A program made the position numbers and the translations under genes. 36,633 nt of DNA, from positions 258,497-295,129 of the forward strand of contig CP070645.1 in assembly GCA_020354275.1 (NCBI GenBank), given 5' to 3'. The notes beneath the pieces were generated by a model. It saw only the letters and a list, made by a program, of their open reading frames with translations, was not told where the DNA came from and searched no databases. Positions 1,552 to 13,656 of this stretch are shown here, one piece after another. Within the stretch, counting starts at the first letter, position 1. Each line of letters starts with the position of its first letter. Origin of the DNA: Dehalococcoidales bacterium. Lineage in GTDB: Bacteria; Chloroflexota; Dehalococcoidia; Dehalococcoidales; UBA2162.

Positions 1552-2129
1552 ATAACCCGGGTGTTCACCCGGCAAGCATAAGGTAACAGTCCGTGCGGCA
1601 GTGTTTACCAAGCAAATCCGGTTCGTAATCTCACACTTGGCCAATAGTTTCCAGGTTTAACAAATAATCAGCTATCTACCAGACTTAACCCGACCTGAAA
1701 CCTGCCTTGAAGATACCGTTTTATTAGACCTGTTCATCCTGATTCCTCAGAATACAGTCCTTATCCTTCACCCTTTCCCCAATTATTGTTTATACCTCTA
1801 CCGTAAAAACACTAAAACACCGCTGAATTTCATCGTAAATTGACCGTGACGACTCCCCTACTGCAATTTAATATGTACCCGACCTTGATTCACCAGCCCC
1901 GAATTATCAGATCTACAAATTAGAAATAAATATCACCGGGCATGAGAAATTCTACCCAGAATGGCTTTAGTTAGTTATACCCACTGAATCTTTACCTGAA
2001 TCTACCTGCTTCATTACCGAATAACAACTATCCTAACTATATTTTTTATTAACCAGTGCTATCCTAATCTCATACAACAGGACAAGTTTTAAAACAAACC
2101 AAATCAGTTGGTTAAGGAGATGATTCGAT

Positions 2130-2465
2130 ATGGTAGTAGCTGAGAGACGAATCACCGATGTTGAGAATCTGAATGTGCCCAGCCTTGATGAAGTGGTTAC
2201 CGTAATCAGGGTAAACGGCGGCCTGTTCCTCAAACCGAGACAGGCAGCAGAGGTGGCCTCCAGGTTATCACCACTCTCCCGGCGTGAAATAGAGATCCTC
2301 GACTATGTAGCCGATGGACACTCCAATAAACAGATATCTCACCGTTTCGACATCAGTGAACATACAGTAAAGAACCACCTCACCACTATTATGCAAAAAC
2401 TCAATGCCAAAGACCGTACCCATGCCGTAGTTACGGCATTGCGTGAGGGATGGCTCTCAATATAG
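2130..2465 (+). CDS. small LuxR/FixJ-family HTH transcriptional regulator (no receiver domain)
   Basis: The C-terminal HTH is LSRREIEILDYVADGHSNKQISHRFDISEHTVKNHLTTIMQKLNAKDRTHAV. AAGGAG at 2114..2119 precedes ATG 2130. The N-terminal ~45 aa has no domain I recognise. Confidence 0.8.
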   Translation: MVVAERRITDVENLNVPSLDEVVTVIRVNGGLFLKPRQAAEVASRLSPLSRREIEILDYVADGHSNKQISHRFDISEHTVKNHLTTIMQKLNAKDRTHAVVTALREGWLSI

Positions 2466-2493
2466 TCCTTAATACATAAGTAAGGAGGAAACT

Positions 2494-3177
2494 TTGACTG
2501 ATAAATCAATAAAACAAAAAATCGGGGTCTTCCTCGTAGCTGAGAGTTCGATTGCGCGCCAAGGTGCTGCCGCAATAATATCCCAACAAGACGACATGGA
2601 AATGATAGGGCAAGCCGGTGATACCGACGAAGCCTTTTCATTAACCGGTGATATTACATCGAGGATGGTGGTACTGCGGGTCCTCCCCCCTAAAGGTAGT
2701 TTTGAGGTAGTCCACCGGCTCAGAGATATCTCGCCGGAGACATCAGTTATTGTCCTGGCAGAATTTGAAGATGATGAGGGACTTTTCCAGGCAGCTTTAG
2801 CGGGAGTATCGGCATACCTGACCAAGGGGTGTGCTAACGAACAACTGTTAAGCACCATCAGAACAGTAGCTAGTGGTGAGCAGCTTATATGCCGTAATAT
2901 ACTCAATCGGCCCAGGGTTGCCGCCAAAATCCTGGAACGATTCCGGGAGTTGTCATCAATCACAAAAGGCCTTGAACCGCTGGTGGCACCTTTATCATCT
3001 ATTGAAGAAGAAGTACTACGTCTAGTTGCTACTGGCAACCCGGTGGAAACGGTGGCCTATGAGCTTAATGCTAGCCAAAAAGTAGTAGTTAACCACATTA
3101 CCTCAATCATGCATAAGCTCGATGTTAACCAACGGACCCACCAGGCGGTTGCTTCACTTCTGGTTAATCAGTCATGA
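2494..3177 (+). CDS. NarL/FixJ-type regulator with atypical (pseudo-)receiver domain and LuxR HTH
   Basis: TTG start at 2494 follows AGGAGG at 2483..2488. It has a receiver-like fold (IGVFLVAES..., VVLRVLPPKG, VIVLAEF, AYLTK). The phospho-acceptor position reads Arg (codon 62, nt 2677..2679) and the acidic pair reads AE. The C-terminal LuxR-like HTH is LSSIEEEVLRLVATGNPVETVAYELNASQKVVVNHITSIMHKLDVNQRTHQAV. Confidence 0.75.
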   Translation: MTDKSIKQKIGVFLVAESSIARQGAAAIISQQDDMEMIGQAGDTDEAFSLTGDITSRMVVLRVLPPKGSFEVVHRLRDISPETSVIVLAEFEDDEGLFQAALAGVSAYLTKGCANEQLLSTIRTVASGEQLICRNILNRPRVAAKILERFRELSSITKGLEPLVAPLSSIEEEVLRLVATGNPVETVAYELNASQKVVVNHITSIMHKLDVNQRTHQAVASLLVNQS

Positions 3178-3215
3178 GATTAAAAGGGTATTCTTATATT
3201 TCGAGGTGAATTGTC

Positions 3216-4049
3216 ATGGTAGTAAGTAAAAAGAAGGTAGCCTATATCGGGGGACGGGAGTTTGAGATAGTTAAGGACGGACTTTCCCAATCCCAGGTAG
3301 ATACCTTCATTACCAAGCTTATGGAGCAAAACCAGTCTCTTATCAGGAAAACAGAACAGCTTGCTGTACTGGAGAAACTGGCCGAACAGACTATCGCCGA
3401 AGCCGACAAACTGGCGGAAAGTATCAAGAGTAAAGCCCAGGAAGAGGCTGCCTATATAGTACAGATGGCAACAACGGAAGCTGAAGAAATGATAAGGGAT
3501 GCCAGAGAAGATAGCAAACAAGCACTGGTAGTTAGCCGTGAACGCCTGGAGAGTAAACTCAAAGAAAAGGCAAATGAAATATACTTGAAAATACTCAACC
3601 GGTTGGAAGGAACCATATCCGAGGTATGGTCAGCAGACCTTATCGGGGAAGGAGTGGTCACTCAATCAGCGCGGCCACAGATTCCAGCCCAATACCCGGC
3701 TAATATTATTGAGGAACCAGTCGCGGAAAGACCCCTACCTGGTCTCTACGAAGGGAAAGTAAACCTGGATATAGTACCACCGGTTGACCTGGCCAAGTTT
3801 ATGAACTTCAGGAAAGAAATTAAGAATATCCCTCAACTAAGAATATTACATGTATCCAGCTCGCAGAAAAGGGGAGGGACAATCAGCATTCTATTGACGG
3901 AACCCACTCCTCTACTAGACATCTTAAACGGTATAACCGATGTGGAAGACGTAGTAGCAGATAAATGTTCCCAGACTGGGACTACAGCAGAATCACAGCA
4001 GATTGAACCAATACCGAAAATATCAATAGTGTTAGCCTTTGATGAGTAA
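3216..4049 (+). CDS. DivIVA-like coiled-coil protein with conserved unknown C-terminal domain (short paralog)
   Basis: GAGGTG at 3203..3208 precedes ATG 3216. The N-terminal motif FEIVKDGLSQSQVDTFITKL resembles the DivIVA N-terminus. About five 11-residue repeats follow (EKLAEQTIAEA / DKLAESIKSKA / QEEAAYIVQMA / TTEAEEMIRDA). The C-terminal block YEGKVNLDIVPPVDLAKFMNFRKEIKNIPQLRIL is shared with the next gene. Confidence 0.7.
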   Translation: MVVSKKKVAYIGGREFEIVKDGLSQSQVDTFITKLMEQNQSLIRKTEQLAVLEKLAEQTIAEADKLAESIKSKAQEEAAYIVQMATTEAEEMIRDAREDSKQALVVSRERLESKLKEKANEIYLKILNRLEGTISEVWSADLIGEGVVTQSARPQIPAQYPANIIEEPVAERPLPGLYEGKVNLDIVPPVDLAKFMNFRKEIKNIPQLRILHVSSSQKRGGTISILLTEPTPLLDILNGITDVEDVVADKCSQTGTTAESQQIEPIPKISIVLAFDE

Positions 4050-4145
4050 ACTTAGACAGATACTATTTTACTATAACTATACCACCCAAAGTACCATTGT
4101 AATCACTACTAAAGCTCCGTAAAATTTAGATTCAGGGGGATTAAT

Positions 4146-5750
4146 ATGAAAAGTAGCGAGGTGAAACTATTCGACGGGCAGGAATTCCAGAGAGTTAAAT
4201 GGGGGCTAGCCGAAGACCAGGTTGTTAGTTATATCAATAAACTTATCAGAGAACGTGACAATTTACTGGAACGGCAACAACACCTTAATTCACTCCAGAT
4301 GCTCGCAGAAAAGACTGTAACCGAAGCAAATGAGCTCGCACAACAGATCAGGCAGGAGTCTCAGGCTGAGGCCAAGAATTTGGTAACCGAGGCTGAAAAG
4401 AAGGCCGGTGAAACCCTCAGTCAGGCTCAACTTGAAGCTGAGAGCACACTGGCCCAGGCAAATGAGCTGGTTGAGCAGGCAGTTGCCGATGTCAACGACC
4501 TGGCCCTGCAGATCAAGCGGCAGGCTCAGACTGAGGCTAACGAAATACTGGAAGAGGCCGAAGAGAAGGTTCGTGAAACCATTGCTGAAGCCCAATTGGA
4601 AGCTGAGGAAACCACTACCCAAGCCAAAGAACTGGCCGAAAAAGCCATAACAGAAGCCTCGGAATTATCCGAAAAGACGATAACACAGGCCAACGAGGAA
4701 TCTGAGAAGGTGGTAACAGAGGCCAGTCAACTGGCTGAGAAAATCAGGCAAGACGCCCGGACTCAGGCTAATACAATAACAGAAGAGGCCGAAGAGAAAG
4801 CGAACGAAACCCTTAACGAGGCCCAACAGGAAGCTGAGAAAACCACCGCTCAGGCTAATGAAACGGCGGAGAAGACTTTAGCAGAAGCCAAGGAACTGGC
4901 TGAGAATATCAGTCAAGAAGCCCAGAACCAGGCGGCCAAGATAATCGAAGAGGCTGAAGAAGAAGCCAGCGGGATTATACATGAAGCGCAGAAACAGGCT
5001 GAAGAAGAAGCTGAAGAGAAAGTGGCCTTAGCGATGGAAAATTCAAAACATGAAGCCGCCGCTATTGTAGAAACAGCCAAGAAGAGCATTTCCAGTGAGA
5101 TTGAGGATTTCCACAGCAGGTTCAGTAACCGGCTACAGAATCTCATCTCCGAAATAGCAGCCTACCAGGATATAGTAGACTCCGCAGAGGTGGAAACAGA
5201 AGAGGACAAAGTAGAAGCGTTGTCCCAATCAATCCCCTTTACAGAAGTGGGCGACTCAAGCAACAACGGTAACAATGAAGATCTGGCAATGGACGGAGAC
5301 TTCGAATCCGATTTAGCCCTGGCGGTTATGAATCAAGAAGAAATTGCCGAAGACCCCGCAATAACCGATTCTGAATACGTCACGGCTGAGCCCACTCAGT
5401 CATCAGATGGCACTGTTCTCTATCAAGGCGAGATAGAGCTGGCAATGCCACCGCCAGTAGACATGGCACAACTGATTCGCTTCAGGAGGAACCTGCAAAG
5501 TATCAAACACCTGAAAGTCCTACGCACGACGGGTTCATGGAACGAAGGTAGTATCATTACTACCCTCATTGATAAACCACTACCGCTGATTGACTTACTC
5601 ATCGAAATGCCTGAGGTAGAAAAAGCGGAGTTATTGGCTATTGACGATGACGCTGATACCGACTTCGCTTCAGGGGAAGCAAATGAGGCTAGAAGTGATG
5701 ATTTACCGAAGAAACGGATAGTTGTCACCCTGATTGAAGATATTGGATAA
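4146..5750 (+). CDS. DivIVA-like coiled-coil protein, expanded hendecad-repeat paralog with the same C-terminal domain
   Basis: The N-terminal motif is FQRVKWGLAEDQVVSYINKLI. It has 21 consecutive 11-residue repeats and an acidic linker. The C-terminal block YQGEIELAMPPPVDMAQLIRFRRNLQSIKHLKVL is paralogous to 3744..3956. Confidence 0.7.
   Translation: MKSSEVKLFDGQEFQRVKWGLAEDQVVSYINKLIRERDNLLERQQHLNSLQMLAEKTVTEANELAQQIRQESQAEAKNLVTEAEKKAGETLSQAQLEAESTLAQANELVEQAVADVNDLALQIKRQAQTEANEILEEAEEKVRETIAEAQLEAEETTTQAKELAEKAITEASELSEKTITQANEESEKVVTEASQLAEKIRQDARTQANTITEEAEEKANETLNEAQQEAEKTTAQANETAEKTLAEAKELAENISQEAQNQAAKIIEEAEEEASGIIHEAQKQAEEEAEEKVALAMENSKHEAAAIVETAKKSISSEIEDFHSRFSNRLQNLISEIAAYQDIVDSAEVETEEDKVEALSQSIPFTEVGDSSNNGNNEDLAMDGDFESDLALAVMNQEEIAEDPAITDSEYVTAEPTQSSDGTVLYQGEIELAMPPPVDMAQLIRFRRNLQSIKHLKVLRTTGSWNEGSIITTLIDKPLPLIDLLIEMPEVEKAELLAIDDDADTDFASGEANEARSDDLPKKRIVVTLIEDIG
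4329..5021 (+). repeat. coding repeat: 21 in-register 11-codon (hendecad) units
   Basis: Residues 62..292 of the 534-aa protein split into 21 blocks of exactly 11 aa. The consensus is x-E-x-A-E-x-[TI]-[LI]-x-[EQ]-A, for example KELAEKAITEA / SELSEKTITQA / NEESEKVVTEA / SQLAEKIRQDA. Four larger 44-aa super-units begin at aa 62, 117, 194 and 249. Confidence 0.85.
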
Positions 5751-5770
5751 AAGGGAGAAGGGCAGAAATA

Positions 5771-7468
5771 ATGTCTATTATCACCACGGTAAACAGAAAC
5801 CTTGGTGACATACTGGTCCAGGCGGGACTAATTACCCCTGAACAGTTAGAGAATGCCTTGGCGCTGCAGAAGGAAAAAGGCGGTGAGGTTGGCCAGGTTC
5901 TGGTAGAGCAAAATCTAATTACCGCTCAAGAGCTGGCCAGCTTAACCGGTCTGCAGTGGAATATCCCCTATATTGATGTTACGCAACAGCGGATTCAGCC
6001 CGAGGCAATGAAACTCATCCCCGAAGAAATGGCCAGGAAATACAATGTTGTTCCATTAGAAATAGCCGATGGTGCGCTGGTAGTAGCTATGGAACAACCC
6101 TGGAATATCGAGACGATTGGCGACCTTACCATGCAGGCGAGGATGACGATTAGACCGATGCTGGCAGTTGCCGCTGATGTCCAGGAAGCCATTAACCTGA
6201 ACTATAAAGTCAGTAGCGAGCTTGAAGAGCAACTCAGTCACATCTCACTAACCACTGCTGCTCAAGCGAAGATGGATGAGCGTGTTTCTTCTGATGTTAT
6301 TGCCCAGGCTCCTATTGTACGGTCGGTAAGCCTTATCGTGGGACAGGCGGTCAAAGACCGTGCGTCTGATATCCATATCGAACCCCATGAGGACAAGTTG
6401 CGAATTCGTTACCGCATTGATGGCATCCTGCATGATGCTATGTCTTTACCGATGAGTATCCACCTGCCACTCACCTCCCGCCTGAAAATTATGGCCGGAA
6501 TGAATATCGCCGACCGGAGGCGGCCGCAGGATGGCCAGTTTTCATTGAAGGTGGAGGGCAAAGAAGTAGATATTCGCGTCGCCAGTAGCGATACGGTACA
6601 GGGTGAAACCATAGTATTGCGGATATTAGATAAATCATTTGCCCTGTTCGAGTTAGAGCAACTCGGTTTCTCTCTTGGTACTCTGGAGAGATACCGCCAG
6701 GTGCTTAACTCTCCATTTGGCATGATTCTACTCAGCGGTCCTACCGGTTCGGGTAAAACGACGACACTCTACGCCTCGGTGAACCAACTCAATCATAACG
6801 AACGTAATATAATGACCATCGAGGACCCGGTAGAATACCGCTTCAATAACATTACCCAAATCCAGGTAAATCCCCGTGCCGGCATTACCTTCGCTAGTGG
6901 GCTTAGAGCCCTGATGCGCCTTGACCCGGATGTTATTCTGGTTGGAGAAATACGAGATAGCGAAACCGCCCGTATTGCCGTTCAGGCTGCTCTCACCGGG
7001 CACATGGTACTTTCCTCAATCCATGCCAATGATGCTGTTGGCGTCCTTTTCCGTTTGATAGACCTGGGGGTTGAACCATTTCTGGTATCCTCAGCACTGG
7101 TCGGCGTGGTTGCTCAGCGGATGGTACGCCGTGTCTGTCCACACTGCCGCCAATTGACTCCAGCATCCGAAGAAGAACAGATCATATACGAACGGGAAAT
7201 GGCAGAAAAACGAACCGAATTCTACACTGGTGCCGGTTGTAACACCTGCGCCAATACCGGATACCATGGACGGAGTGCCGTGCTGGAGTTGATGGTCATG
7301 AGCGAGCAGTTAAGGCATCTGGTGATGAGCGATGCCCGGGCTGACATAATCCGCAATAAAGCAATTGAGGAGGGAATGGTGCCGGCATGGCGTGATGGCA
7401 TGTTAAAAGTCAAGGAGGGTACTACCACTCCATACGAATTACTGCGCAATGTTTATTCCATCACCTAG
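5771..7468 (+). CDS. pilB: type IV pilus assembly ATPase PilB (GspE family)
   Basis: The N-terminal T2SE_N-like domain reads LGDILVQAGLITPEQLENAL. Walker A is GPTGSGKTT and Walker B is DPDVILVGEIRD. The tetracysteine motif is CPHC...CNTC. It is 565 aa long. Confidence 0.9.
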   Translation: MSIITTVNRNLGDILVQAGLITPEQLENALALQKEKGGEVGQVLVEQNLITAQELASLTGLQWNIPYIDVTQQRIQPEAMKLIPEEMARKYNVVPLEIADGALVVAMEQPWNIETIGDLTMQARMTIRPMLAVAADVQEAINLNYKVSSELEEQLSHISLTTAAQAKMDERVSSDVIAQAPIVRSVSLIVGQAVKDRASDIHIEPHEDKLRIRYRIDGILHDAMSLPMSIHLPLTSRLKIMAGMNIADRRRPQDGQFSLKVEGKEVDIRVASSDTVQGETIVLRILDKSFALFELEQLGFSLGTLERYRQVLNSPFGMILLSGPTGSGKTTTLYASVNQLNHNERNIMTIEDPVEYRFNNITQIQVNPRAGITFASGLRALMRLDPDVILVGEIRDSETARIAVQAALTGHMVLSSIHANDAVGVLFRLIDLGVEPFLVSSALVGVVAQRMVRRVCPHCRQLTPASEEEQIIYEREMAEKRTEFYTGAGCNTCANTGYHGRSAVLELMVMSEQLRHLVMSDARADIIRNKAIEEGMVPAWRDGMLKVKEGTTTPYELLRNVYSIT

Positions 7469-7520
7469 TATCCCGGACAGGATACCCCCGCATAGAACAA
7501 CCTGACTCCCCGGAGAAAAG

Positions 7521-8729
7521 ATGAATTACCAATATGTAGCTTATACCAAGGATTGGAAAATAGTAAAAGGTACTCTGAGTGTCGCTTCAGAGGCAGTGGC
7601 CGAACAGACCCTGATAAGACAGGGCTACCAGCCTATCTCCGTCAAGTCAATGGCGGCTATGCCAAGCATCGAGCAGCTATTTCCTTCACTTTTTACCGTT
7701 AAACCCAAAGAGGTAATCATGTTCGCACGTCAGCTGTCGACATTGCTCGAAGCTAGCATCAGCCTGGTCCCCGGTCTCCAGATGCTCCAAGAACAAATTA
7801 CCAACCGGTTGTTCAAGAAGGTAGTTGGTACCATGCTTGATGACATTCGGGCTGGTAATTCATTTTCTGATGCGCTGACCAAACATAGTAATATCTTCGG
7901 AGAAGTATTCTGCAAACTGGTTGCCGTTGGCGAGCAAACGGGTAGCCTTGAAATCTCGCTGAAACAGGCATCCAACTACATAGAGAAAGAAGTCCAGGCC
8001 AAGAAGAAGATTAAAAGGGCTTTAACCTACCCTATCATAGTACTGGCCGTAGCTATAGTGGTAATAGGCGTACTAGTCATCTTTGTACTGCCTTCAATGA
8101 TGAGCATGTTTACCTCAATGAACGCCGAGCTACCAATAACAACAAAAATGCTGGTAGCTATCATGAACTTCGTTGAAAGCTACAAGCTTTACCTTTTTGG
8201 TGCAGTAGTATTATCAGTAGTAGGGCTTGTCGTTGGTATTCGGCAGCCGAAAGCACGTTATCAATTGGACCGCCTTCTAATCACACTGCCGGTAATCGGA
8301 ACTGTCAACCTTATGAATGAGATGGCCCGCTTTTGCCAGACCATAACCTTGCTACTACATGCCGGGTTACCCCTGCCCGATATAATAAACATGACACGAC
8401 AAACCAGCAGCAATCGCGTAATACAAAATGCATTGAATGATGTACAAAACGACCTGATAAAGGGAGAGGGATTATCAGTACCCATGAGCAAGCATAGTCT
8501 CTTTCCCCACCTGCTGGTCCAGATGGTAATGGTTGGTGAGGAGAGCGGTAATCTGGAGTCCACCATGAGCATCGTTGCTGAAAGCTATGAGTCCGAAGCT
8601 GATGATAAGATCAGCGGTCTGATTGCCCTCATCGAACCAGCCATGACCATTGGCCTGGCGTTAATGGTGGCTTTTATCGCTCTTTCGGTAATCAGCCCGA
8701 TGTATTCAATTATGGGGGCATTTGGTTAA
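7521..8729 (+). CDS. pilC: type IV pilus platform protein PilC (GspF family)
   Basis: It is 402 aa with two T2SS-F-like halves and three hydrophobic segments. It lies immediately downstream of pilB. Confidence 0.88.
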   Translation: MNYQYVAYTKDWKIVKGTLSVASEAVAEQTLIRQGYQPISVKSMAAMPSIEQLFPSLFTVKPKEVIMFARQLSTLLEASISLVPGLQMLQEQITNRLFKKVVGTMLDDIRAGNSFSDALTKHSNIFGEVFCKLVAVGEQTGSLEISLKQASNYIEKEVQAKKKIKRALTYPIIVLAVAIVVIGVLVIFVLPSMMSMFTSMNAELPITTKMLVAIMNFVESYKLYLFGAVVLSVVGLVVGIRQPKARYQLDRLLITLPVIGTVNLMNEMARFCQTITLLLHAGLPLPDIINMTRQTSSNRVIQNALNDVQNDLIKGEGLSVPMSKHSLFPHLLVQMVMVGEESGNLESTMSIVAESYESEADDKISGLIALIEPAMTIGLALMVAFIALSVISPMYSIMGAFG

Positions 8730-8756
8730 GCCAGCTTTATTAAAGCAGAAATAATT

Positions 8757-9200
8757 ATGCAAATTTTAATTAAGAAAATAACAGCCATTATCAACGGGCA
8801 AAAAGGCTTTACACTGTTAGAGACACTAACGGCACTGGCCTTGCTGGCTATTCTGGGGGTAGTTTTCTATTCCTCCATAGCTACTTCCAGTATTACTATG
8901 GCTAGTGCCGAAGAAAAGGTCCAGATTGATAATCTGGCCAGAGCCCAATTCGAATATACCAAGAAATGCGAATATGTCGAATACATTTATGGTTCGCCGG
9001 ATACGCCACCTGATTACACAACCCTTGATGAACTCGATCCCACTGACCCTTATGCAATCACCCTGCCCGACGGCTATTCTATTGATGTTGCTGCCGTGGC
9101 ACTCCACGTACCCGATGCCGGGGTACAGCAGATAACGGTCAACATATCACGGGACGGAGAAAGCCTGCTGGTAATAGAAGGCTATAAGTTAAACAGATGA
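8757..9200 (+). CDS. prepilin-type minor pilin
   Basis: The class III signal is GQKG/FTLLETLTALALLAILGVVF, with Glu at +5. Confidence 0.75.
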   Translation: MQILIKKITAIINGQKGFTLLETLTALALLAILGVVFYSSIATSSITMASAEEKVQIDNLARAQFEYTKKCEYVEYIYGSPDTPPDYTTLDELDPTDPYAITLPDGYSIDVAAVALHVPDAGVQQITVNISRDGESLLVIEGYKLNR

Positions 9201-9709
9201 TTAAGTCATTAATAAGAAACCAAAAAGGGATGACCTTTGTTGAAGTGATAGTGGTCACCGCTATTATTGCGGCAATCACGGGGGCTTTTAGTTCGTCAAT
9301 CTTTGGCATCTTTCAGCACACTGAGAGCAGCAATGCTCACATGACCGCTGCCAGCAGCATAGAGAACGCTGCCCACCGTATTAGCACTGACGGACAGATG
9401 GCCCAGAATACTGACCTCGTTCCAGGTTCTGCTGCTGTAAGCAGTATAACCCTAAACTGGACCGACCCGGTCAGTTCTGACTCCTACGAAATCTACTATT
9501 TCCTGGCCGATGGTAACCTTCAACGCCGGGAATCAGTTAATGACATAGAACAGAGTACACAAACAATAGCTAAATATATAACCAGTATCGGATTTTACCA
9601 GGAAGCAGGTGATGAACAGTTATTTACCGTCGCTATCACCTCTTCAGGGTCAAGTCCCCGGGTGAGTGAAACCAAAGAGTACCATATTCTACTTAGAGCA
9701 ACTGATTGA
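9197..9709 (+). CDS. prepilin-type minor pilin
   Basis: Its start overlaps the previous stop (ATGA at 9197). The signal is NQKG/MTFVEVIVVTAIIAAITGAF, with Glu at +5. Confidence 0.75.
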   Translation: MIKSLIRNQKGMTFVEVIVVTAIIAAITGAFSSSIFGIFQHTESSNAHMTAASSIENAAHRISTDGQMAQNTDLVPGSAAVSSITLNWTDPVSSDSYEIYYFLADGNLQRRESVNDIEQSTQTIAKYITSIGFYQEAGDEQLFTVAITSSGSSPRVSETKEYHILLRATD

Positions 9710-9835
9710 CCATAAGGGAGGGTGTTTAAAAAGCTGAGTCTATTGCCCAATTTCTCCGGCACGGAAATTGAAACAATCATACCAGATCCATTCCCCCACT
9801 GGGGAAAATATAGAACAGGTTTTAAACGGTAAAAA

Positions 9836-10405
9836 ATGAAATATAAAAGGATATTTACAAGCATTCCATTTATAATCGGTATTTTCATTGTCATTTACGC
9901 TGGCTTTGGGCTGGTATATTTCCAGAAGCATAATGAATGGCGTGATATAAATGCTCAAATTATTCCTACTCGAACTGCTCTGAGTAAACCTTCTGCCGAC
10001 CTGGGGCAACTGGAAAGCCAGCTCAGCCAGATTGAATTCCAGTTTGAACAGGCCTGGGCAACTCTTCCTGATGCGAACCAGGGAATTGATCTATATGACG
10101 CCCTAATAGAGGTGGCCCGTCAGAGCAATGTAGACGTTATTAGTGTAGTGGCTTCTTCACCGGCAGACGGTCACTATGGCGGAATAACATTTACCACATT
10201 ACCATACAATATCAATGTACAAGGCAGTGAAACTGGTATCCTTAACTTCGTCTCCAACCTGGCCGACGGCCCGGGGTTATTAGAAAGCTCTGAGGTCCAA
10301 AACCTAATTATTATTAATGGTGAATCAGACAATGTCACGGGTATTAGCTCCAGCCAGGCGAGTTTTCAACTGGTTATATACGCCCAACCCAGCCAATCAC
10401 TGTAA
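9836..10405 (+). CDS. PilO-like pilus assembly protein (N-terminal TM, coiled coil, C-terminal alpha/beta domain)
   Basis: The TM helix is IPFIIGIFIVIYAGFGLVYF. A coiled segment (LGQLESQLSQIEFQFEQAW) follows, then LPDANQGIDLYDALIEVARQSNVDVISV, which is typical of PilO. The call rests on architecture and position only. Confidence 0.5.
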   Translation: MKYKRIFTSIPFIIGIFIVIYAGFGLVYFQKHNEWRDINAQIIPTRTALSKPSADLGQLESQLSQIEFQFEQAWATLPDANQGIDLYDALIEVARQSNVDVISVVASSPADGHYGGITFTTLPYNINVQGSETGILNFVSNLADGPGLLESSEVQNLIIINGESDNVTGISSSQASFQLVIYAQPSQSL

Positions 10406-10442
10406 ATTATATATATCTCAAGCGATATAAGGGAGTATAAAA

Positions 10443-11879
10443 TTGTTCTCTAAGAAAATTGTAACCTTGAATATCGAGAGTACTGACATCAGGCTTTTAA
10501 CTGTAGTTGGTAAACGGGTACAAGAGTGGAGCACCGCTTCCCTTGACTCTGATCTGGTAAAAGAGGGATTAATAATAGACCCCCCAGCAGTGAGTGCCGC
10601 CATCAGCCGGCTTATGGCTGACCAAGGAATCAAGGAGAAGGACATTATTACCAGCTTGAGCGGTTTTCAATCAGTCCAGCGTACTCTTGATCTGCCCAAG
10701 TTATCTCACCAATTAATTGGCGATGCCCTTCTAAGGGAAGCTAAAAGGACAATGCCTGTTTCTCTAGATCAGTTATATCTGTCCTGGCAAATCCTCCATG
10801 ACGGAGATCAAACTCAGCCTGTTTTTCTGTTGGGCATTCCCAGGAACTTAATGGACGCCCAGGTTGTATGCCTGCAGCAGGCCGGGATTTCTCCACGTAC
10901 TATGGAACTCAAGCCGCTGGCTTTAGCCAGAATGGTAAACCGGCCCGAAGCACTAATTGTTGATGTTGAAGAGGAGAATGCTGATATTATTGTAATATCA
11001 GGAGGGATCCCCATCATTATGCGCACCCTCAGCATGCGCATTGACCAGTCGCTGAGCAGGCGGCTACAATATTTGGTTGAAGAGTTTGAGCGAACCCTGC
11101 AATTCTATGCTTCCAACCACCCGGACGAACCTTTGGGCCGTTCGACTCCGCTCTTTCTAACCGGTGGACTGGCTAAGGACGTCGAAGTAGTCCAGGTAAT
11201 AACCGCCGGTATAGAATACAAAATAGAACCCTTGGAGTCTCCGTTTGAATCTCCCCCTGATTTCCCTTCAGAACAGTATGCTGTAAATATCGGCATGGCG
11301 CTGAAATATACATCCTTAATGAGAGACACAAGCATACCCGATGTCAACATATTGCCCGATAACTATCGCCCCCACCGGATGCCAGCCAAACAGATGCTCC
11401 TGGTTCCGGGGATTGTAGCCGGAATCGCGGTCATCCTACCCCTGTACCAGCTGGCAAATTCGGCTAATGTCGAGGTTTATCAGGCCCAGGCGGAATATAA
11501 TAAGGTCACTCAACAGCTCCAGATCAGACAACTGGAAAATAAAAGGGTTCAGGAGATTGAAGCTGCTATCGCCAAGATAGAAGAGAAAAAGCAGCAGCTG
11601 GAGACCAAGATAGAGGAACTTGGCGCCGGGCGTCTGGATATCTATGATACCCTCTCCACGGTCGCTGTTGAATGCCTGCCTTCTGGGGCGACCCTGTTCA
11701 GTACTTCATATTCAGGCGGGCAATTGAAACTGCAGGGCAACGCTACCAGTTATACACAGGCGCTGGAATACAGCCGCATTCTTGAGCAAACGGAAAAATT
11801 TGCCGTAGTGTGGATAAATTCGTTAAACGCTGCCGATGACGGCACGGTGAACTTCAGTATAACTCTAACACAGTCTTGA
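10443..11879 (+). CDS. PilM-PilN fusion protein (actin-like ATPase fold fused to a TM and coiled-coil PilN-like region)
   Basis: TTG start at 10443 follows AAGGGAG. The N-terminal ~300 aa is PilM-like (IVTLNIESTDIRLL..., LTGGLAKD). Next come NILPDNYRP (PilN-type motif), the TM helix LLVPGIVAGIAVILPLY, a coiled coil and a C-terminal domain. Confidence 0.7.
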   Translation: MFSKKIVTLNIESTDIRLLTVVGKRVQEWSTASLDSDLVKEGLIIDPPAVSAAISRLMADQGIKEKDIITSLSGFQSVQRTLDLPKLSHQLIGDALLREAKRTMPVSLDQLYLSWQILHDGDQTQPVFLLGIPRNLMDAQVVCLQQAGISPRTMELKPLALARMVNRPEALIVDVEEENADIIVISGGIPIIMRTLSMRIDQSLSRRLQYLVEEFERTLQFYASNHPDEPLGRSTPLFLTGGLAKDVEVVQVITAGIEYKIEPLESPFESPPDFPSEQYAVNIGMALKYTSLMRDTSIPDVNILPDNYRPHRMPAKQMLLVPGIVAGIAVILPLYQLANSANVEVYQAQAEYNKVTQQLQIRQLENKRVQEIEAAIAKIEEKKQQLETKIEELGAGRLDIYDTLSTVAVECLPSGATLFSTSYSGGQLKLQGNATSYTQALEYSRILEQTEKFAVVWINSLNAADDGTVNFSITLTQS

Positions 11880-11933
11880 TCCGCCACGGTCATACCCATA
11901 AAAGATATATAAATTGTGAAAGGTAATTAAACA

Positions 11934-13028
11934 ATGGACATTATCGATATTCTACAACTGGCAGTGAAGAGAAATGCCTCTGATATTCAAATCCTGGCTT
12001 TTTGCGCCCCGGTAATGAGGGTTGACGGTAAGTTGGTAACACTGGACACCCTCCCCCTGACAGCCGAAGATGTCCGGCAGATATTCGATGAAATAACCAA
12101 TGATGAGCAGAAAGAGAGCTTCAAGCGTGAACAGGAGCTTGACTTTGGTTATAATTTCTCGGGAGGTATCCGCTTTAGGGTGAACGCCCACCGACAGAAG
12201 GGGACTATTGGTCTCTCCTTCCGTCTGGTCCACAATACTATTCCCACTATCGAGGATTTAGGGCTTCCACTAATATGTCAGGAACTGGTAACCAAACCCC
12301 ATGGTTTAATACTGGTTACCGGACCCACCGGGTGCGGCAAATCCACTACCATGGCGGCGATGATTGAATACCTTAATCACTACCTGCGCCGACGTGTGGT
12401 TACCATTGAAGACCCTATAGAGTACGAATATGCCAGTGACCAGTGTGTCATATCACAACGCGAAATTAACTTCGATACACACTCATTTACGGCAGCACTG
12501 AAACACGTGCTCCGCCAGGATCCCGATGTCATCCTGGTCGGTGAAATGCGGGACCTAGAGACGGCAGCGGCGGTACTGATGGTTGCGGAGACCGGCCACC
12601 TGGTGATATCTACCGGCCATGCTCCCAGCGCCCATTATTCCATAGAAAGAATCGTTGACCTCTTTCCCGCCCACCAGCAACAGTTGGCCCTGGGGCGGCT
12701 GGCCGCTGTCCTTCAGGGAGTGCTTTGCCAGAGGTTAATACCCAAAGCTGACGGCGCCGGACGGGTACCCGCGGTAGAGGTAATGCTGGCAACTCCGGCA
12801 GTGAGAAACCTCATCCGGGAGAACAAGACCTACCAGTTGCCTAATGTCATCCGTACCAGCTCGCAGAGCGGCATGCGCACCATGGACGAAGCATTATCGA
12901 CACTCTATCTCACCAAGCAGATTAGTAAAAAGGAACTTTTCGATAATTGCGCCGATGAAGAGGAAGTGGTCAGGATAATCGGTGAGCCAAGACGAGGTGT
13001 TGCCCTGCATAGAGCGGTATCATACTAG
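11934..13028 (+). CDS. pilT: type IV pilus retraction ATPase PilT
   Basis: It is 364 aa. Walker A is GPTGCGKST and Walker B is DPDVILVGEMRD. It has no T2SE_N extension. LIRENKTYQL is typical of PilT. Confidence 0.85.
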   Translation: MDIIDILQLAVKRNASDIQILAFCAPVMRVDGKLVTLDTLPLTAEDVRQIFDEITNDEQKESFKREQELDFGYNFSGGIRFRVNAHRQKGTIGLSFRLVHNTIPTIEDLGLPLICQELVTKPHGLILVTGPTGCGKSTTMAAMIEYLNHYLRRRVVTIEDPIEYEYASDQCVISQREINFDTHSFTAALKHVLRQDPDVILVGEMRDLETAAAVLMVAETGHLVISTGHAPSAHYSIERIVDLFPAHQQQLALGRLAAVLQGVLCQRLIPKADGAGRVPAVEVMLATPAVRNLIRENKTYQLPNVIRTSSQSGMRTMDEALSTLYLTKQISKKELFDNCADEEEVVRIIGEPRRGVALHRAVSY

Positions 13029-13123: not shown

Positions 13124-13158
13124 ACAGACACCTCTTTTCAAGGTGTCTGTCTTATTTT
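13124..13158. terminator. bidirectional intrinsic terminator between convergent pilT and the major pilin gene
   Basis: CAGACACCT (13125..13133) pairs with AGGTGTCTG (13141..13149) across a 7-nt loop. An A-run lies on the left and a T-run on the right. A separate perfect 20-nt palindrome, AGCTAAAGCCGGCTTTAGCT, sits at 13171..13190. Confidence 0.75.
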
Positions 13159-13212: not shown

Positions 13213-13656
13213 TTACGGTGCAGAATCAACTCCGATCTCATTATTGGATGTTCCGCTACCGCCACTTGTCCACCACCCGCGGCAGGTTCCGTCAGAATCA
13301 ACGCTATACCAGAACTCTGTTGTGTCCTTCTGCAGATAATGAGTATTACCAAACAGGCTAACATTATCTGAATTACTGGTGGTGGGGAAATAGGTCATGT
13401 CATTGTACGGAGATGTAGTAGTTGAGCAAGGGTTCGTGATTGACGTAATACCCAGGTCTGCCATCATCGCCGTCACCGCTGTCTGGATACTGTGCAGCTC
13501 GGTCAACCCTGACTCGTCTTTGCCCTGGCCCATGAACTTACTGACATTGGGTACCACCACTGCAGCCAGTACGCCTAGGATAGCAATTACCACCAGGAGC
13601 TCAATCAGGGTAAACCCCTTTTCGCCATAACGAAAGTGCTTCAGGAATTTTTTCAC
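13213..13656 (-). CDS. pilA: major type IV pilin (prepilin with N-terminal methylation motif)
   Basis: The leader is MKKFLKHFRYGEKG/FTLIELLVVIAILGVLAAVVVP. It is 147 aa. GGAGG lies upstream (reverse complement of 13664..13671). Confidence 0.85.
   Translation of the reverse strand: MKKFLKHFRYGEKGFTLIELLVVIAILGVLAAVVVPNVSKFMGQGKDESGLTELHSIQTAVTAMMADLGITSITNPCSTTTSPYNDMTYFPTTSNSDNVSLFGNTHYLQKDTTEFWYSVDSDGTCRGWWTSGGSGTSNNEIGVDSAP

Follow-up and report, generated by a model that had tools for sequence, protein, structure and literature searches.

Within a 36,633-nucleotide (nt) stretch of the genome of a Dehalococcoidales bacterium (phylum Chloroflexota; assembly GCA_020354275.1, contig CP070645.1, positions 258,497 to 295,129 of the forward strand), which we refer to as the window, two adjacent genes lie directly upstream of the type IV pilus (T4P) gene pilB. 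Gene A (3216..4049, + strand) encodes a protein of 277 amino acids (aa) and gene B (4146..5750, + strand) one of 534 aa, both open reading frames (ORFs) being exactly those given in a preliminary description of this DNA. As judged from sequence, the pair represents a putative scaffold of the DivIVA family whose C-terminal domain is new and lineage specific and which appears to have been recruited to a pilus cluster.

A BLASTP comparison of the two proteins returned two independent significant segments, one N-terminal (A residues 7-126 against B residues 5-123; 33% identity, E value of 6e-15) and one C-terminal (A residues 164-275 against B residues 412-529; 30% identity, E value of 7e-16). Three parts are common to A and B: a DivIVA-type head, a helix built of 11-residue repeats (the stalk), and a C-terminal domain (CTD) of about 105 aa, with a flexible linker between stalk and CTD in each protein. 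The tripartite layout proposed in the preliminary description is therefore the one that we find in both. The A product is soluble and acidic (pI 4.96), with orthologs at 46-85% identity; the B product is soluble and very acidic (pI 4.26), with a long stalk. No hydrophobic or transmembrane segments were detected in either protein.

The head occupies approximately residues 8-55 of A (3237..3380, + strand; core REFEIVKDGLSQSQVDTFITKL) and residues 6-53 of B (4161..4304, + strand; core QEFQRVKWGLAEDQVVSYINKL). The DivIVA-type motif noticed earlier in these sequences is real, and both proteins pass the Pfam DivIVA (PF05103) cutoff of 28 bits, A with 32.4 bits and B with 52.4 bits. A single-sequence search of the PDB with the N terminus of A missed DivIVA, and a family profile was needed. 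Such a profile, built from 24 members (consensus LWG.EF..VK.GL.E.QV..FV..L), matched DivIVA 7o39_A with an E value of 5.4e-6, the core EF.rVK.GL...V..F of the family head aligning with it residue for residue, and matched GpsB more weakly (4ug3 and 6gp7; E values of 0.013-0.19). An AlphaFold2 (AF2) monomer model of the N-terminal module (pLDDT, the per-residue confidence score, 94.9) consists of a hairpin (residues 5-8 and 11-16) followed by a long helix (residues 22-66), which is compatible with the DivIVA fold, in which a loop or hairpin caps a long helix that pairs into a parallel coiled-coil dimer; a Foldseek search of the PDB with this model gave a best E value of 3.9, a hairpin plus one helix being a query unsuited to the method. 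On the strength of the profile matches, the head can be assigned to the DivIVA family as an N-terminal domain of that type, and the remainder of the protein departs from canonical DivIVA. In Bacillus subtilis DivIVA, F17 and R18, a hydrophobic and a basic residue of an exposed loop, contact the membrane. The equivalent positions hold K20-D21 in A and K18-W19 in B. One residue before them, the family head keeps V-K, with the V invariant, and 7o39 does likewise (VKNGL). The recognition of membrane curvature or poles put forward in the preliminary description is, for A and B, a conjecture.

The stalk that follows the head differs greatly in length between the two proteins. In A it comprises about 5 units (residues 56-110; 3381..3545, + strand), and in B about 23 units of an uninterrupted hendecad (11-residue) helix (residues 54 to ~317; 4305..5096, + strand). 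Of the counts proposed previously, 5 for A agrees with ours and 21 for B comes close. Autocorrelation of B over residues 46-345 gave z scores of 12.5, 9.7, and 8.6 at lags of 11, 22, and 33, and A gave a z score of 3.9 at lag 11. Written in rows of 11, the B stalk keeps an unbroken register from residue 54 to ~317, with small residues at the core positions. We looked for a DNA-level tandem repeat or repeat expansion in B and found none, and the stalk repeats are therefore old. Both stalks give sub-threshold matches to ATP-synt_B, V-ATPase E/G/H, AhaH, HrpE/YscL/FliH, SctL, and Scy, which are explained by the 11-residue periodicity; among the stator models, the scores were 22.2 bits against a cutoff of 28 for ATP-synt_B, 17.9 against 24.2 for vATP-synt_E, and 20.7 against 78.7 for SctL (TIGR02499). 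PF28068, which existing annotation flags here, is the coiled-coil family "Scy" and was rejected as a model of the CTD. Beyond its stalk, B carries an acidic low-complexity linker (residues 340-421; 5163..5408, + strand).

The CTD spans residues 174-275 of A (3735..4040, + strand; family hidden Markov model [HMM] E value of 5.6e-30) and residues 422-530 of B (5409..5735, + strand; E value of 2e-37). The preliminary description had aligned a shared C-terminal block of about 70 aa; its ranges, 3744..3956 and 5418..5630, correspond to residues 177-247 of A and 425-495 of B. That block is real and forms the core of what is shared, and the domain itself is longer, ending in a strand at the extreme C terminus (approximately residues 268-274 of A and 523-529 of B) that follows a disordered linker. 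Neither CTD matched any Pfam or NCBIfam model, single-sequence PDB searches with both returned no match at E values up to 10, and none of 64 diverse CTDs matched a Pfam model better than an E value of 0.02. A profile search of this region had been suggested as a check, and no known family was matched.

To a word-index homolog search the C-terminal fragment alone yielded nothing, and an exhaustive HMMER search was needed. With a two-sequence profile, this search recovered 800 cluster representatives (at 50% identity) at an E value of 1e-3 or lower and 194 at 1e-10 or lower. Among these members, the CTD lies almost always at the extreme C terminus of host proteins of 80 to ~650 aa, with the consensus LY.GEVEL...PPVD......L...L...P..KIL.T.GS...G..ITV.L..P.PL...L...P.VE...RI...L. 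One protein of 4112 aa with 16 short matching stretches (P0051) was discarded as a low-complexity false positive. All members are annotated in their sources as "hypothetical protein," and all named sources are Chloroflexota (Dehalococcoidia, Dehalococcoidales), mostly Dehalococcoidia. By these searches, the CTD defines an uncharacterized lineage-specific family.

The structure of the CTD alone, another check that had been proposed, was predicted with AF2 for the B domain from the 64-sequence alignment (pLDDT 84.3, with the core above 90; predicted TM score [pTM] 0.74). The elements of the model are β1 (5-13), α1 (19-30), β2 (35-43), β3 (47-58), α2 (60-65), and β4 (70-76), after which a disordered acidic loop leads to an extra strand, β5 (102-108). 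The model is a ferredoxin-like β-α-β-β-α-β unit plus an extra strand, an assignment of fold class only and not of superfamily. A Foldseek search of the PDB with the CTD model returned nothing at an E value of 1e-3 or lower (best E value of 0.17, TM score of at most 0.5), and the weak matches were all generic members of the ferredoxin-like class (S6 permutants, ACT, and HMA). The earlier description of the domain as uncharacterized is borne out by sequence and structure searches alike.

One further similarity was encountered on the sequence side. The CTD family profile matched the P2 domain of Thermotoga maritima CheA (1u0s_A) with an E value of 0.0034 over 29-35 columns, and hhalign gave 79% probability over 29 columns covering one β-α unit. 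The first β-α unit of the CTD (VEL...PPVD..L..L; B residues 425-453, ~5418-5504) resembles the second β-α unit of P2. We rejected the CTD as a full CheA P2 homolog because a local motif of 29 columns is too short for homology.

Pfam searches agree with the labels given earlier to the neighbors of A and B (LuxR regulators, pilB, pilC, and the other pil genes) for the genes scanned. Immediately downstream of B, pilB encodes an MshEN plus T2SSE extension ATPase (5771..7468, + strand; Pfam T2SSE 427 bits, MshEN 66 bits). The rest of the co-oriented pilus cluster spans 7521..13028 on the same strand and comprises pilC (7521-8729), a pilin-like gene (8757-9200), a second pilin-like ORF (9197-9709, which was outside the Pfam scan), pilO (9836-10405), a pilM-pilN fusion (10443-11879), and pilT (11934-13028). 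A further pilin gene (13213-13656) is convergent with the cluster. The PilM-PilN fusion is a single protein of 478 aa, with PilM_2 at residues 25-174 and PilN at residues 410-476, and related loci keep it. The cluster genes that we examined did not include one for a secretin, as would fit a machine of the monoderm type. Two LuxR/GerE-type regulators lie directly upstream of A (2130..3177, + strand), a small GerE/LuxR protein (2130-2465) and a receiver-like GerE/LuxR regulator adjoining A (2494-3177); a GAF-GAF histidine kinase is encoded at 100-1551. The receiver-like domain of the second regulator is barely above the Pfam cutoff (30.5 against 30.2 bits), and alignment to CheY places A-E-R-A at positions D12/D13/D57/T87, with Arg in place of the phospho-acceptor Asp, so that it looks like a phosphorylation-independent pseudo-receiver.

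The gaps between these genes are short: 38 nt between the LuxR regulator and A, 96 nt between A and B, and 20 nt between B and pilB, the same values as reported earlier. A Shine-Dalgarno-like run of purines precedes the ATG by 6-10 nt in A, in B, and in pilB. A terminator scan found no terminator-like site on the + strand in the intergenic gaps before 13124, and the first strong terminator downstream of A is a hairpin at 13124..13150, in the gap that separates pilT from the convergent pilin gene. With a GC-containing stem of 10-12 bp and a T-run on either strand, it resembles a terminator that works in both directions and would end both transcription units. Given the short gaps and the lack of an intergenic terminator-like site, A and B are likely co-transcribed with the pil genes.

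We examined the synteny of CTD genes with pil genes in related loci, using clade-specific alignments to scan for two further clades. In three loci with A orthologs at 84% identity (L002-L004), the gene order of the window is repeated. A fourth, L001, at 49% identity, has LuxR genes, three tandem CTD paralogs, and then pilB, pilC, pilO, pilMN, pilT, and a pilin gene; the same LuxR regulators precede the CTD genes in all four. The three ORFs of L001 (1794-5122, + strand) encode 264, 288, and 535 aa, against two such genes in the window, and the first of these paralogs is without most of the coiled coil. At 31% identity (L005), two CTD genes are interleaved with pilM, a prepilin peptidase gene, pilB, and pilC. 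Short CTD proteins lie directly upstream of pilB in L006 and L007 and again in L009 (P0159); the one in L006 (P0123) is 138 aa long, contains little beyond the CTD, and is encoded ~30 nt upstream of pilB.

The same arrangement recurs in a distant clade, marked by the motif GSWDRGTTITV and represented by 16 loci (L010-L025; one genome per species). Here, the CTD gene is immediately upstream of pilB-pilC in all 15 loci with downstream sequence (L010-L024), and the PilB proteins are only 56-60% identical to that of the window. Stalk length among the pilB-adjacent orthologs ranges from none to more than 500 residues. When adjacency to core pil genes is taken as the operational mark of a pilus accessory protein, it is found in both the window lineage and the GSWDRGTTITV clade. 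No division or cell-wall genes were seen among the annotated pilus-cluster genes. In the literature, we found no description of DivIVA-type pilus proteins, of this family, or of DivIVA in Dehalococcoidia or Chloroflexi, in line with the earlier statement that no T4P accessory protein of this architecture had been described.

A third clade, marked by LNLGGSVDKGITIR (the LNLGGS clade), is found in a different setting. The metagenome scan recovered 79 loci (L026-L104), in which proteins of 400-1100 aa have the same DivIVA-type head, stalk, and CTD and usually occur as two in tandem (for example, at 2010-3254 and 3619-6309, both on the + strand, in L034). These genes are convergent with genes for a DUF5667 protein, an ECF sigma factor, and family III CoA-transferases; in L026, neighboring genes lie at 6366-7184 (- strand), 7138-7689 (- strand), and 8967-10199 (+ strand). 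A complete Dehalococcoidia chromosome (L008) was at first a candidate for a lone exception to synteny and was rejected as such, since it has exactly the context of the third clade. Synteny with pil genes, the lack of which the preliminary description had named as a refutation, thus stands for the window lineage and the distant clade and fails for the third, where it was found in none of the 65 informative loci. The CTD is, on this comparison of loci, not pilus specific, and its pil linkage appears strong but clade specific.

Two side observations concern these loci. In L008 (CP070819.1), an open frame at 9646-10320 (+ strand) runs from a GTP cyclohydrolase I segment (PF01227, profile positions 1-80; 96 bits) into a CTD; NCBI annotates this region as two separate pieces, with the CTD piece marked partial, and rearrangement or gene decay may account for the frame. 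Genes of the GH3 family (acyl-acid amido synthetase-like) lie a few kilobases from CTD genes at L005 (6739-8382, - strand), L078 (714-2363, - strand), and L103 (2647-4395, - strand), recurring at a pil-linked locus and at non-pil loci alike.

Many of the pilB-linked loci also encode a second kind of CTD protein, in which a full-length receiver (REC) domain (52-101 bits) is followed by the CTD. These REC-CTD genes are divergent from the pilB-linked scaffold gene and adjoin a REC-LuxR regulator; examples, all on the - strand, are at 4773-5720 in L010, 4985-5830 in L011, 2762-3547 in L012, 951-1850 and 5213-6118 in L019, and 1958-2782 in L020. Most of the receivers keep the phospho-acceptor residues, several of them with the full canonical set D12/D13/D57/T87/K109, and those of L010 and L011 have Glu at the D57 position. 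Pfam detected no receiver domain in A or B. Because a receiver is fused to the CTD in these sister proteins, the CTD is, by domain composition, also a response-regulator output module.

CTD genes come in pairs almost everywhere. In addition to A and B in the window, there are three in L001, at least two in each of L002-L004, and two in L005; a scaffold gene is accompanied by a REC-CTD gene in at least 9 of the loci L010-L025; and two CTD genes are in tandem in 28 of 29 informative loci of the third clade. In a rough neighbor-joining tree of about 100 CTD columns, the CTDs group by genomic context; B falls with the L001 paralogs in the vicinity of the REC clade, and A lies closer to the clade found away from pil genes. 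This tree, which carries no support values, points to A and B being ancient paralogs from different subfamilies and not the product of a recent duplication.

From this combination of architecture and gene neighborhood, we propose that A and B form a pilus-associated cytoplasmic scaffold or adaptor pair of the T4P cluster, a proposal that we regard as evenly balanced between right and wrong. The DivIVA head would dimerize and attach the protein to the membrane on its cytoplasmic side or, as in GpsB, to the tail of a membrane protein. The stalk would act as a spacer, far longer in B than in A, that sets a fixed distance of ~8 nm in A and 35-40 nm in B, provided that the helix is continuous. The CTD would serve as a protein-protein docking module for the pilus motor platform, for a partner CTD, or for both, a role suggested by its occurrence alone upstream of pilB, as the output of phosphorylatable regulators, and in pairs. 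Candidate partners are PilB, its invariant downstream neighbor and the most likely of them, the PilM-N platform, and another CTD; the probability of any specific partner is much lower than that of the scaffold proposal as a whole. The CTD would thereby be the part of the protein that acts on pilus assembly, either positioning it or switching it. Heteromers between CTDs could carry regulatory input to the scaffold, an idea made attractive by the pairing rule and the REC-CTD fusions, and paralogs of the same architecture outside pil clusters may use a scaffold of this kind on other targets.

Several points weigh against this proposal. Co-transcription of A and B with pilB is read from gene spacing and from the lack of terminators, and adjacency does not identify a contacted pilus component or show that there is one. 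The DivIVA-type head is assigned by sequence profiles only, with Foldseek being uninformative, and the K-D and K-W pairs at the F17/R18 equivalents mean that membrane binding is not assured. Finally, the third clade is without pil genes in the flanks of 65 of 65 informative loci, from which it follows that the CTD cannot, across the whole family, be a dedicated PilB-binding domain.

This last point also feeds an alternative explanation, namely, that A and B serve Dehalococcoidia in general as DivIVA-like scaffolds of morphogenesis or division, with a CTD that does housekeeping work (self-assembly or envelope attachment, for example) and an adjacency to pilB that, though conserved, has no functional meaning. 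DivIVA-family proteins are classically division or growth scaffolds; the third clade has the same head, stalk, and CTD away from pil genes, beside the DUF5667 protein, ECF sigma factor, and CoA-transferase genes; L008 shares this context; and in the rough tree the CTD of A is nearer to that clade. We nevertheless consider the explanation unlikely. A same-strand slot directly upstream of pilB is held in 15 of 15 informative genomes of the distant clade and in the window lineage, with PilB proteins 56-60% identical, and chance adjacency seldom survives such divergence. Short proteins that are nearly CTD only hold this slot as well, and the REC-CTD regulators, too, are concentrated at these pil loci.

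In a more specific form of the scaffold proposal, A and B would be stator-like tethers of the hexameric PilB ATPase, comparable to ATP synthase b, V-ATPase E/G, or FliH/SctL, with a right-handed hendecad stalk, an anchor in the DivIVA head, and a CTD that grips the ATPase. The ~23 uninterrupted hendecads of B with their small core residues, the weak profile matches to ATP-synt_B, vATP-synt_E, HrpE/YscL/FliH, AhaH, and V-ATPase G, and the position of the gene as the invariant upstream neighbor of a hexameric motor ATPase would all suit such a role. All of these matches, however, are below curated cutoffs and are explained by shared periodicity and composition, as Scy, apolipoprotein, and RNase Y N-terminal models match too, and the non-pil clade has the same stalk. 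The idea is weakened further by stalk length, since a stalk that some pilB-adjacent orthologs lack and that exceeds 500 residues in others is hard to fit to a fixed geometry, and we rate it as distinctly improbable. Very improbable, finally, is a CheA-P2-like, receiver-binding CTD through which the scaffold recruits response regulators (LuxR-type or REC-CTD) to the membrane without contacting the motor: the profile and hhalign matches to 1u0s_A, the small β-α-β-β-α-β domain that P2 also forms (judged from its sequence pattern), and the response regulators and histidine kinase encoded nearby speak for it, but the match covers a single β-α unit (VEL..PVDL..L) aligned to the other half of P2, CheA is absent from the top 50 Foldseek matches, no CTD matches any Pfam model better than the E value of 0.02 given above, and a receiver-binding domain fused to a receiver would be an odd architecture.

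The scaffold proposal can be extended to a bolder form, which we think unlikely. The CTD would be an unrecognized Chloroflexota signaling-output and docking domain, carried on either a REC domain or a DivIVA-headed stalk; paired CTDs would couple two-component signaling to the T4P extension motor; and the stalks would be length-defined, stator-like tethers of PilB. If true, this would represent a new wiring of the pilus motor to the membrane and to phospho-signaling, reused in paralogs for other targets.

How A and B relate to known systems depends on the part compared. The head resembles DivIVA and GpsB, as seen in the Pfam score and in the profile matches to 7o39 and GpsB structures, and in each case a coiled coil follows it. 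Unlike DivIVA and GpsB, A and B continue into a long stalk of unbroken hendecads, variable in extent, which is followed by a ferredoxin-like domain that lies outside the local Pfam DivIVA model, and they are encoded in a pilus cluster and not in a division or cell-wall cluster. With the stator proteins (ATP synthase b, V-ATPase E/G, and FliH/SctL) and the Streptomyces polarity protein Scy, they share helices of 11-residue or other non-heptad periodicity with many A, E, K, and Q residues; the resemblance does not extend beyond the repeats, and A and B have neither a membrane anchor helix nor a FliH-type ATPase-binding domain. The CTD has the β-α-β-β-α-β topology of ferredoxin-like and ACT-like domains, but it differs from them in the extra C-terminal strand after a disordered acidic loop, in its own signature, and in having no significant match.

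By functional analogy, the closest precedents would be FrzS and HmpF. FrzS of Myxococcus xanthus, which consists of a pseudo-receiver and a long coiled coil, is a polar beacon that recruits the T4P activator SgmX (PMC9811614). Like FrzS and AglZ, A and B would be cytoplasmic coiled-coil scaffolds for T4P regulation with receiver signaling, the receivers here being fused to the CTD in sister proteins. FrzS differs in having its own N-terminal receiver, no DivIVA head, and no CTD, and we found no sequence relationship between it and A or B; moreover, its receiver is a pseudo-receiver, whereas most of the REC-CTD receivers keep the phospho-acceptor residues. HmpF, a cyanobacterial protein rich in coiled coil, copurifies and colocalizes with PilB, is needed for twitching, and has been proposed as an activator of pilus extension (PMC7002697). 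It sets a precedent for action on PilB by a coiled-coil adaptor, although it belongs to another phylum, no DivIVA head or CTD of this kind has been described for it, and the two are compared by description only.

The CTD family is conserved and unnamed, with ~800 clusters at 50% identity, and two of its clades fill the slot immediately upstream of pilB. It joins a DivIVA-type membrane-scaffold head to a new globular domain that likewise forms the output part of response regulators. The T4P of the monoderm-like, mostly uncultured Chloroflexota are, to our knowledge, almost unstudied. Interest in the family is tempered by organisms that are hard to culture and by a genomic context that is mixed across the family, and the non-pilus contexts of the CTD caution against naming it a pilus domain. 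If the CTD does dock on the pilus motor or on partner copies of itself, it would provide a concrete handle on pilus regulation in Chloroflexota and would enlarge the set of known response-regulator output domains.

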